Assembly: GCA_002716405.1 (NCBI GenBank)
Contig: PBBA01000006.1
Coordinates: 289,683 to 353,682 of the forward strand
Source of the DNA: Chloroflexota bacterium
GTDB taxonomy: Bacteria; Chloroflexota; Dehalococcoidia; UBA2979
Direction of reading: 5' to 3'
Length of the DNA: 64,000 bases
Made by a program: the position numbers and the translations under genes. The notes under the pieces are model-generated. The model ran no database searches. It was not told the DNA's origin and saw only the letters and a program-made list of their open reading frames with translations. Positions 9,667-29,637 of the stretch are shown here, in pieces. Every line of letters begins with the position of its first letter. The stretch's first letter is position 1.

Positions 9667-9715
9667 GCCTGCACTCCTATCTAGTGCTTCGGTATTTCCG
9701 AATTGGCCTGAAAAT

Positions 9716-9836
9716 TGCTTACGAGGTTAGCTGTCGGGTTCGGGTTGTCAGGACACCCGCTTTTCGAAAAAAGTTCACCCCAATTATTGGTTCCCCCGAT
9801 CTTGATTATAAATAAATAACCAAAGATTCAGCAGCT
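9716..9836 (-). promoter_or_regulatory. c-di-AMP riboswitch aptamer (ydaO/yuaA class)
   Basis: Minus-strand RNA reads UGCUGAAUC...GAUCGGGGGAACCAAUAAUUGGGGUGAAC...ACCCGAACCCGACAGCUAACCUCGUAAGCA. These match the conserved ydaO blocks as I recall them (GGGGGAnCCA, GGGGUGAAUC, CCGAAnCCGnCAGCUAACCUCGUAAGC). A closing helix UGCU/AGCA is present. Confidence 0.8.
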
Positions 9837-9871
9837 ATACAACCCAATTGGGTTGTGATTCTTTTAACAAG

Positions 9872-26330: not shown

Positions 26331-26744
26331 TTAGTCCCAAATTATTCTTCTAGCAAAACAATGATCACATAAAACTGCTGAGATTCTCTGTGAATTACCC
26401 GTTCCAAATTCCATAATATCAGCAACCTTTAAATGAAATTTACAGAAAAAAAGCTGACATCTATTACATTGTATTTCCATAAATGAATTACAACTCTCAA
26501 TTGCACAAACTTGTTCTTCATTTGCAACTCTCACTCGAATTTTCCACTGCAGATGCATTTCTACATCTGCTTTTTTTGCTAAACACTCACTCTTGTTGCA
26601 AACTTCTAAATAATTTGAACCAATTACACCATGTCTTTCACAAAATCGTAAATTACAATAAACACATTGACCTAAAAAACTATTTTTACATACTCTTCGG
26701 AAAAAGTTTTGACGCCAATTACAAATATCCTGCGGTCGTTTCAT
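26331..26744 (-). CDS. Cys/His-rich putative zinc-binding protein (two AN1-like C...C...C.C...FC..H modules)
   Basis: CKNSFLGQCVYCNLRFCERH and CAIESCNSFMEIQCNRCQLFFCKFH, plus a terminal CDHC. Confidence 0.5.
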   Translation of the reverse strand: MKRPQDICNWRQNFFRRVCKNSFLGQCVYCNLRFCERHGVIGSNYLEVCNKSECLAKKADVEMHLQWKIRVRVANEEQVCAIESCNSFMEIQCNRCQLFFCKFHLKVADIMEFGTGNSQRISAVLCDHCFARRIIWD

Positions 26745-28092: not shown

Positions 28093-28593
28093 TTAAAACT
28101 CTTTTGAAAGTTTTCGATATTTACCCTTAAAAAATAAAAGAGGATCGTCATCAGAATTATTCGAAGCAAAATCAACAACTTCACCCACAATTATCGTATG
28201 GTCACCACCTGGAAATTGATCTCTTATCTTGCATTCAGCAAATGCAATACAACCATCAAGTATCGGAGTCCCTAAAACACCCGTATGATAAGGAGTTCCA
28301 CTAAGAGGTTCTTCCATACGTCCATGTTTAGCAAAAAGAGTAGAAATATCTTCTTGATTTTCACCTAATATATTAACTGCAAATGAACTAGTGCCTGCCA
28401 AAGCTGTATGCATTGAAGCAGTTTTGGCAACACAAATTAATATTAATGGTGGATCTAACGATAATGAAGAAAATGCATTTGCCGTCATTCCATATAATTC
28501 TTCAGACTCAAGGGTAACAACCGTTACTCCTGTGGCAAAAATTCCCATCGTATCTCGAAATGATCTCGAATCCACCGATTTTTCTTCACTCAT
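28093..28593 (-). CDS. Flavin reductase-like (HpaC/split-barrel FMN-binding) protein
   Basis: FRDTMGIFATGVTVVT and ...GDHTIIVGEVV motifs. Start taken at MSEEKS, because the track ORF's first 20 codons overlap tRNA-Sec. Confidence 0.8.
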   Translation of the reverse strand: MSEEKSVDSRSFRDTMGIFATGVTVVTLESEELYGMTANAFSSLSLDPPLILICVAKTASMHTALAGTSSFAVNILGENQEDISTLFAKHGRMEEPLSGTPYHTGVLGTPILDGCIAFAECKIRDQFPGGDHTIIVGEVVDFASNNSDDDPLLFFKGKYRKLSKEF

Positions 28594-28624
28594 CCAACAC
28601 CTCAAGTTCAAAATAATCACTACC

Positions 28625-28721
28625 TGGCGGGAATGCGTGGGAGTCGAACCCACCCAGGACTACGACGTAGCCCCGCAACGGTTTTGAAGACCGCGAACAC
28701 CACCAGGCATTATCCACTCCC
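28625..28721 (-). tRNA. selC: tRNA-Sec (anticodon UCA), selC-type
   Basis: 97 nt: GGGAGUGG AU AAUGCC-UGGU-GGUGUU (6-bp D stem, 4-nt loop), GCGGU-CUUCAAA-ACCGU (UCA anticodon), a long variable arm GGGGCUAC-GUC-GUAGUCCU, GUGGG-UUCGACU-CCCAC, and an extended acceptor ending G-CCA. Confidence 0.88.
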
Positions 28722-28813
28722 ACACATATCATACTTACATATTAGGAATTGGAGTATCGCTTAATCATGTATTATTATGCATAAAGCTAATTATATAAGA
28801 GCAAGGAAAAAAA

Positions 28814-29317
28814 TTGACAATTGAACAACCCTCAGAAGAAGATCTTTCACAAGCTTCACCAGAAAATATTAATAAGATGCGTAAATTCGTTAATAACTTT
28901 GCCGAAAAAAGTGGTAGCTTTTTACACCCACAATCTGAGATTACAGAATTTCTAGTCATAGGTTTGGCAAAAAATATTGATGAGGTTGGAAGACCTCTTT
29001 GCCCTTGTATGTTTTTTGAGGACAAAGAAGAAGAAATAGAAAAGAAATTCTGGATTTGTCCATGTGAAGAAATGCAAAGATGGAAATATTGTCACTGACT
29101 ACTTTTTTGCGACGAGGAAGGTCTTCCCGTCACAGAGCATTTACCAGAAGATCATGAAGGAAGAGAGGCGTATGGTCTCCGTAAAGATCCTGACCCAAGT
29201 AAAGGTAGAGCCCTAGGAAGGCTTGAGGAAAAGCAAGGTAGATCGCTTAAAAAAGGTCAACGATCTAGTAATGAATCCAATCAGACTGGGAACAAAAATC
29301 CAAAAAATATTATCTAA
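28814..29317 (+). CDS. Ferredoxin:thioredoxin reductase catalytic-subunit homologue, predicted selenoprotein (in-frame UGA at 29096..29098 read as Sec)
   Basis: CPC-(16)-CPC-(8)-CH[UGA]-LLF matches the FTRc CPC...CPC...CHC.LF pattern exactly. 72 stop-free codons follow the UGA in an AT-rich genome. A SECIS-like hairpin lies 12 nt after the UGA, and tRNA-Sec is 93 nt upstream. The track ORF stops at 29098. Confidence 0.7.
29111..29131 (+). promoter_or_regulatory. Bacterial SECIS-like hairpin
   Basis: GACG(A)GGAA-GGUC-UUCC-CGUC: an 8-bp stem with one bulged A and a GGUC apical loop starting 24 nt after the U of UGA. Confidence 0.6.
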
Positions 29318-29637
29318 AGTACCGCATCGATATGCTTAGCAAGTTCACTCTTTGGACGAAATCCTATAACTTGACCAACATTTTCTCCGCCTTTAAAAAG
29401 CAACAATGTAGGAATTGAACGAATCCCATACTTACCAGATACTTGAGGATTTTCATCAGTATTTAACTTCACAAATTTAACTTGTCCATCATAGTCGTCA
29501 GATAGTTCTTCGACGACTGGAGCTACCATCCTGCAAGGTCCACACCACGGTGCCCAAAAGTCTACCAAAACAGGTAGTTCAGAATTTAAAACATCAACTT
29601 CAAATGTTGAGTCTGTCGTATCAGTAGGGTGTGCCAT
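29314..29637 (-). CDS. trxA: Thioredoxin
   Basis: [18 protein letters not shown], 107 aa. Its 3' end overlaps the extended FTRc ORF by 4 nt (convergent). Confidence 0.93.

Follow-up and report, generated by a model that had tools for sequence, protein, structure and literature searches.

We analysed a 64,000-nucleotide stretch of DNA (hereafter the window; contig PBBA01000006.1) from a Chloroflexota bacterium of the Dehalococcoidia. At 28814..29317 on the forward strand it carries a gene for a homologue of the catalytic subunit (FTRc) of ferredoxin:thioredoxin reductase (FTR), whose reading frame is interrupted by a UGA codon that is very probably decoded as selenocysteine (Sec). A 94-codon open reading frame (ORF; 28814..29098) is terminated by the TGA at 29096-29098, and beyond it the frame stays open for 72 further codons, up to a TAA at 29315-29317. 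Read through, the gene comprises 167 codons, with a TTG start, the in-frame UGA as codon 95 and the TAA as its stop. By our own estimate, an open frame of 72 codons after a stop would arise by chance with p ~0.007 at the GC content of the window, which is 38%. In alignments the TTG is in register with the N-termini of homologues, which read MT(L/I)(D/E)QPS. Moreover, a putative Shine-Dalgarno-like AAGGA, recognised by inspection of the sequence, lies 6 nt ahead of it (28803..28807, plus strand). The gene is flanked by a divergent tRNA-Sec gene, selC, and by a convergent thioredoxin gene, trxA, whose 3' end overlaps the TAA by 4 nt; a hairpin resembling a bacterial Sec insertion sequence (SECIS) lies inside the coding sequence just past the UGA. 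The ORF, the TGA, the 72-codon continuation and the 4-nt overlap had all been outlined in a first-pass annotation of the window, and all of their coordinates were confirmed. Judging from comparisons at the sequence level, we consider it highly probable that a marine Dehalococcoidia-type bacterium here carries a genuine selenoprotein gene that has been mis-annotated.

Relation to ferredoxin:thioredoxin reductase

With a Cys put at codon 95, the 167-aa conceptual product matches PF02943 (FeThRed_B, the FTR catalytic beta chain; the family is also known as COG4802 FtrB) with 83.1 bits (E = 1.8e-23, cutoff 22). The match covers residues 19-103 and thus runs across the TGA. The spacing of the motifs is CPC-16-CPC-8-CH-TGA (C63-P-C65, C82-P-C84, C93-H-U95). 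When the product was compared with the PDB by phmmer, the top matches were the catalytic chains of plant and Synechocystis FTR (E ~1e-20 to 1e-21). The alignment to the Synechocystis chain 1dj7_A is ungapped, with an offset of -8, and pairs C63, C65, C82, C84 and C93 with Cys55, 57, 74, 76 and 85. Since it also puts codon 95 on Cys87, the UGA occupies the position of the last Cys of the CHC motif, as the first-pass annotation had read from the motif spacing. The structurally characterised FTRc proteins (Synechocystis 1dj7 and 2pu9, Arabidopsis 7bzk) share with the window protein the PF02943 domain, the ungapped CPC-16-CPC-8-CH(C/U) arrangement, 37-40% sequence identity and the conserved His86. 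The fold was checked on a Cys-containing homologue rather than on the window protein itself: the AlphaFold2 model of this 70%-identical relative (P0001, pLDDT 85) superimposes on 1dj7_A at 1.0 Å over 88 columns, with a TM (target) of 0.78.

The window protein differs from classical FTRc by the Sec at the Cys87 position and by a C-terminal extension of ~60 residues, which is conserved in its homologues and missing from classical FTRc. Past the CHU motif this tail holds a single Cys (C99) and zero CxxC pairs. Moreover, the host belongs to a non-photosynthetic Chloroflexota lineage, and no candidate for the FTR variable subunit (FTRv) adjoins the gene, the window not having been scanned for PF02941. 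The C-terminal extension may, speculatively, stand in for the variable subunit. More distant fold matches of the P0001 model are 4tpu, the ferredoxin:disulfide reductase (FDR) from Methanosarcina acetivorans, and 7pwe, a Grx-FDR fusion from Desulfotalea psychrophila, and the archaeal FDR is also a weaker sequence match to the window protein (E = 6.7e-10 in phmmer). These proteins resemble it as FTRc-like [4Fe-4S] disulfide reductases of non-photosynthetic organisms that act without a variable subunit. They stand further off than classical FTRc, however, and they have no Sec but additional domains of the rubredoxin or glutaredoxin type. The tail of the window protein is without either domain, including the C-terminal rubredoxin of 4tpu. 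By homology, the window protein would be an FTR-type [4Fe-4S] disulfide reductase, and it would be expected to hold the cluster and to carry out ferredoxin-driven reduction of thioredoxin.

In 2008 Zhang and Gladyshev described FTR, found in GOS reads, as a new family of selenoproteins (PMC2398784), and reviews list Sec-FTR with the motif CxU. The novelty that the first-pass annotation had implied for a Sec-containing FTR does not stand, although what was described in 2008 is another, double-Sec subfamily. Its founders were predicted from marine metagenomes (JCVI_READ_1093012271142 and 841845; PMC2398784, Dataset S2) and read YCPU...ICPC...FCIUMFF, with two Sec and no His; the corresponding NCBIfam model, NF041072, is named 'FtrB family double-selenoprotein'. 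The window protein shares with this subfamily the FTR family, the use of UGA/Sec for a redox-active Cys and the placing of Sec last in the third motif (CxU). The subfamily's own pattern, however, is CPU...CPC...CIU, presumably forming a diselenide, with Ile for His, whereas the window protein has a single Sec, on the cluster side only and in a CHU motif, and its nucleophile remains a Cys. It is 30% identical to a GOS founder. On NF041072 it scores 48.6 bits, the cutoff being 160, and membership was rejected both because of this score and because the motifs are CHU/CPC instead of CIU/CPU. Sequence comparison indicates that the window protein is a separate branch, which has just one Sec, retains the CH(U) motif intact and is much nearer to classical FTRc. 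Our literature search found no paper describing this single-Sec CHU branch; homology-based resources, BSepDB among them, may well contain it without comment.

Cysteine forms and conservation across the UGA

A search of 5.8 billion proteins returned 1542 homologues. Among them, the best full-length sequences are 147-160 aa long, 60-72% identical and labelled Dehalococcoidia; at the UGA column every one of these has KYCHCLLF. They align end to end with the read-through translation of the window gene and share its downstream peptide. Three database entries that are 87-99% identical to the window protein end at exactly the same residue as the 94-aa ORF; the conservation of the downstream peptide shows that close homologues do not truly terminate here. 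To collect Sec forms at the DNA level, metagenome and species-genome collections were scanned for the pattern K-Y-C-H-TGA-L-L-F. The counts of Sec-form loci given here and below are those among the matches listed and are lower bounds. After filtering, a TGA is found at the CHC column in at least 188 independent FTR-like loci with the arrangement CPC-16/17-C(P/A)C-8-CH-TGA, and both the window and every one of the 188 have CPC, with a Cys codon, as motif 1. These loci comprise 149 unique protein cores, whose pairwise identity is as low as 48%. Among the species genomes, ~97 of the 120 matches listed are genuine. Their hosts are almost all Chloroflexota (Dehalococcoidia, one SAR202 bin, Thermoflexus), joined by two Entotheonella. 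The Cys/Sec pairs at this column, which the first-pass annotation had proposed to look for, are thus provided by the full-length Cys homologues and the TGA-bearing loci.

The frame downstream of the TGA is open for at least 40 codons in 180 of the 180 loci that are not cut by a contig end. Moreover, the share of substitutions falling at codon position 3 is 61% in codons +15 to +39 past the TGA, compared to 63% upstream of it. The peptide downstream of the TGA evolves as coding sequence. In a rough neighbour-joining tree of 149 Sec and 106 Cys cores, at least nine switches between Sec and Cys are needed, and the Cys form closest to the window among these cores is 74% identical to it.

Two further features of the Sec forms were observed. 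A Cys four residues after the Sec (U-L-L-F-C; codon 99 of the window gene, 29108-29110) is present in ~124 of the 188 Sec-form proteins, whereas every Cys-form homologue has Val at this column. It could reflect a constraint of the SECIS lower stem on a UGC/UGU codon, or it could be an extra thiol that pairs with the Sec. Finally, some metagenome-assembled genomes (MAGs) hold several paralogues: MAG SJ354 (JADLFF01; L202, L222, L246) has two Sec-form copies and one Cys-form copy, and MAG MoH-23oct19-41 (L139, L183) has two Sec-form copies. The pattern suggests that the copies differ in function or back each other up in a selenium-dependent way.

The hairpin and the tRNA-Sec gene

The predicted SECIS hairpin spans 29105..29137 on the plus strand, with a core at 29111-29131, a bulged A at 29115 and an apical loop GGUC at 29120-29123, 21 nt past the UGA. 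Its stems pair 29105-29109 with 29133-29137, 29111-29114 with 29128-29131 and 29116-29119 with 29124-29127. It resembles the fdhF-type SECIS of E. coli in lying inside the ORF just past the UGA, in its small loop starting with GGU, in the bulged nucleotide below the upper stem and in the 21-nt spacing, although the sequence of its stem is unrelated. GGUC is also the loop of the E. coli fdhF SECIS itself. No SECIS family of Rfam recognised the hairpin at gathering or relaxed thresholds, which gave noise only. The criteria in use for bacterial SECIS (bSECIS) elements are a loop of 3-9 nt with a G within its two leading nucleotides, a stem no shorter than 4 bp, a spacing of 16-37 nt and a minimum free energy of at most -7.5 kcal/mol (PMC13188914). 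With its GGUC loop, 21-nt spacing and -13.2 kcal/mol, the window hairpin lies within all four limits. The same is true of 153 of the 154 unique Sec forms, but of only one of seven Cys forms.

Comparison across loci shows that the structure itself is maintained. Over 126 unique sequences the register of the window hairpin is 80.6% paired and has a covariation score of 0.197, compared to 35-58% and 0.025-0.097 in slid registers. In the same set G25 and G26 of the loop are invariant and U27 is conserved to at least 90%. The stem has accumulated 91 double-sided changes, a count that none of 500 shuffles reaches. Moreover, the window and its 87%-identical relatives do not differ in the ~26 nt that follow the TGA, while synonymous changes abound in the flanks. 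The constraint also extends to codon choice: for the loop Gly, 118 of 130 Sec forms but one of seven Cys forms use GGT, and the codon that follows it is CTT in 84 of 130 and in none of seven, respectively. Because this bias is specific to the Sec forms, the need to encode E-E-G-L-P does not account for the hairpin. In other clades of the Sec-FTR gene the hairpin is a different one, with GGA or CGGGC as its loop and a spacing of 17-25 nt.

The selC gene lies at 28625..28721 on the minus strand, divergent from the FTR gene and 375 nt upstream of the UGA. Its product is a canonical tRNA-Sec with the anticodon UCA, a long variable arm, a discriminator G (G73) and an encoded CCA. It is called as tRNA-Sec both by ARAGORN and by the Rfam model RF01852 (72.6 bits, gathering score 47). 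The adjacent tRNA-Sec gene and the SECIS-like hairpin, both of which the first-pass annotation had pointed out, are thus borne out by independent searches and by stem covariation. In 15 of the 42 loci with enough flank, selC is found within 5 kb upstream, often ~400-500 nt off and divergent as in the window. Of the window's 72 main ORFs, 20 have TGA as their ordinary stop, and therefore the genetic code is not reassigned. Dehalococcoidia are known to be rich in selenoproteins, with up to 46-49 genes (PMC13326102). No further selenoprotein candidate emerged when the 64-kb window was surveyed for other genes split by a TGA that leaves 30 or more codons on either side.

As a separate observation, distinct lineages have selC directly upstream of the Sec-FTR gene and in divergent orientation, in 16 loci within 900 nt and in 32 within ~5 kb. 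Such a repeated linkage of the tRNA-Sec gene to one particular selenoprotein gene is unusual.

Alternative readings, proposed cycle and annotation

Reading UGA codon 95 as Sec, in place of the final CHC Cys of an FTRc homologue, is strongly supported in silico, and we hold this interpretation with high confidence. Several points nevertheless weigh against it, or against the function proposed for the enzyme. In tblastn searches with E. coli SelA, SelB and SelD, neither the 64-kb window nor related flanks amounting to 1.7 Mb contained selA, selB or selD, and only weak paralogue matches to PurL and EF-G were obtained. The bSECIS criteria are loose, since 40% of shuffles pass them, and the single-sequence folding z-score of the window hairpin is an unremarkable -0.49; the hairpin is therefore argued from comparative evidence only. 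The Cys-form DNA control consists of only 7 unique sequences; given this small size and the phylogenetic relatedness among the Sec-form sequences, p-values are nominal. Concerning function, neither a ferredoxin gene nor a gene for an FTR variable subunit was identified, linkage to trxA is seen in just 28% of the Sec-form loci, and trxA and the Sec-FTR gene are not co-transcribed because they are convergent.

If the TGA were a genuine stop, the gene would encode a truncated FTR fragment of 94 aa, and the frame beyond it would be non-coding or a small gene of its own. This is how public records present it, with 94-aa 'complete' proteins (MFL2646993.1) and a separate 59-aa downstream ORF (P0148), and TGA does serve as a stop elsewhere in the window. 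Moreover, Sec insertion is usually inefficient, so that some truncated product probably forms. However, a 94-aa product would be without the Cys87-equivalent redox residue and without the conserved C-terminal third of the family. The frame is open in every complete locus and shows coding-type substitution, homologues have a Cys in place of the stop, and a SECIS and selC are present; we regard a genuine stop as very unlikely. The same low probability applies to a decoding of the UGA as a standard amino acid, be it Cys via a tRNA-Sec-like tRNA or Trp/Gly by an altered code. Cys is the ancestral residue at this column, and a JGI call (P0138, 169 aa) translates a relative under code 4, with TGA read as Trp. 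But the main ORFs that end in TGA exclude a global reassignment, a code change would need no local SECIS, and the adjacent tRNA, besides its score on the tRNA-Sec model, has the discriminator G that is an identity element for Ser/Sec, rather than the U73 of tRNA-Cys. P0138 was also considered as a recent switch from Sec to another residue and was rejected as a gene-calling artefact, because its terminal 'W' is really its stop codon. A pseudogene or an assembly or sequencing error, with the hairpin as a mere by-product of coding, could be argued from the overlap of the hairpin with conserved codons and from its insignificant single-sequence z-score. It is contradicted by the identical TGA in at least 188 loci from independent assemblies, with protein identities down to 48%, by the compensatory changes that keep the stem, and by the Cys forms, which encode the same peptide without the GGT/CTT bias or the hairpin (one of seven passing). 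This reading is already effectively refuted, and the probability we leave to it is negligible.

A different kind of alternative accepts the selenoprotein and its FTR fold but not its role as a thioredoxin reductase: the enzyme would be a disulfide reductase that depends on ferredoxin but acts on another substrate, similar to archaeal FDR and the Grx-FDR fusions. The fold matches to 4tpu and 7pwe, the missing variable subunit, the conserved C-terminal extension and the Cys-form relatives without a thioredoxin neighbour are all consistent with this. However, classical FTRc is much closer in sequence (E ~1e-20 vs 7e-10 for 4tpu), the CHC motif keeps His86, and a convergent trxA adjoins many of the Sec-form genes. 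We consider another substrate unlikely, though far from negligible. The trxA gene of the window (29314..29637, minus strand) encodes a thioredoxin with the active site WCGPC (TIGR01068 132 bits, cutoff 96.8; PF00085). A convergent thioredoxin gene is found within 900 nt in 41 of the 149 Sec-form loci and in none of the seven Cys-form contexts. We assume that the adjacent TrxA is the likely substrate of the window enzyme, and that ferredoxin is the presumed electron donor. One Cys-form homologue (P0063; L254-L257) directly adjoins an operon for 2-oxoacid:ferredoxin oxidoreductase, which lends circumstantial support to ferredoxin as the donor in the FTR-like family.

For a Sec-containing FTR, the following cycle can be proposed. 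The last Cys of the CHC motif in FTR reportedly bonds to the cluster in the one-electron intermediate, a result attributed to Dai et al. 2007 and Walters et al. 2009. In its reaction with thioredoxins, the nucleophilic Cys of the first CPC enters into mixed disulfides, and within the protein it forms a disulfide with the last CHC Cys, 30 positions downstream (Arabidopsis Cys87/Cys117; bioRxiv 10.1101/2022.10.17.512470). The roles that the first-pass annotation had assigned to the six cysteines, four holding the cluster and two forming the active disulfide, agree with the 1dj7_A alignment, and for the disulfide pair also with the latter work. In the window gene, UGA codon 95 would be decoded as Sec during translation of a 167-residue single-subunit enzyme, by the adjacent tRNA-Sec delivered by SelB on the GGUC-loop hairpin that begins 9 nt past the UGA. 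With the Synechocystis numbers in brackets, the predicted cluster ligands are C63 (55), C82 (74), C84 (76) and C93 (85), while C65 (57) would be the surface nucleophile and U95 (87) its redox partner. The active site would then be a Cys65-Sec95 selenenylsulfide beside the cluster, in place of a disulfide. By analogy with FTR, a first electron would cleave the Se-S bond, whereupon Cys65 would attack the disulfide of thioredoxin, probably that of the neighbouring TrxA. Meanwhile Sec95 would be parked on the cluster, with an Fe-Se contact in a [4Fe-4S]3+ intermediate, until a second electron frees it to resolve the mixed disulfide. Sec would thus sit at a leaving-group, resolving and cluster-ligand position and not at the attacking one. 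We only tentatively extend this to a wider picture, which is less likely than not to hold: that of a large, not explicitly described clade of single-Sec FTR-type enzymes in Dehalococcoidia/SAR202-like Chloroflexota and in Entotheonella. These enzymes would carry Sec at the cluster-interacting Cys87 position and keep a Cys as nucleophile, and they might work via a [4Fe-4S]-selenolate and a Se-S bond; their genes would often lie beside selC and trxA and would have switched repeatedly between Sec and Cys.

FTR-family selenoproteins have been known since 2008, so the single-Sec variant refines existing knowledge and adds no new kind. Its main value lies in the correction of annotation and in a natural selenium probe of the cluster-disulfide chemistry of FTR. 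In selenoenzymes Sec is usually the attacking nucleophile; here it would occupy the buried, cluster-bonding and resolving position. Natural Sec/Cys pairs would offer Fe-S enzymologists a built-in 77Se spectroscopic probe, and would allow the effect of a better leaving group and nucleophile on redox potential and rate to be tested. Concerning annotation, the gene is wrongly recorded in hundreds of Chloroflexota genomes and metagenomes. The exact 94-aa product of the window alone is found on 41 contigs, the longest of 540 kb, and the public mis-annotations described above were seen in the protein clusters of two homologues (P0062/P0069; P0121-P0148). The sole curated selenoprotein model for the family, NF041072, misses the window protein. 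With a dedicated model, this widespread error would be mended, and the selenoproteomes of a marine lineage that is abundant would gain a member.

Some neighbouring features of the window are of minor interest. A flavin reductase gene of the PF01613 type lies upstream on the minus strand; in its longest form (28093-28653) it overlaps the tRNA-Sec gene (28625-28721, minus strand) by 29 nt. Its true start is probably internal, because a related contig (L001) has a shorter, 167-aa call. As a conserved partner of the Sec-FTR gene it was rejected, since it is a neighbour in just 3 of 122 loci. Further upstream, at 26331-26744 on the minus strand, a 137-aa ORF is very rich in Cys, with many CxxC-type pairs, and is without an NCBIfam scan result of its own; the corresponding region of the same related contig has just a 76-aa call, without a Pfam match. 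Finally, a c-di-AMP riboswitch (RF00379; 84 bits, gathering score 38) is found at 9701-9843 on the minus strand, between leuB-like and cobT-like genes.

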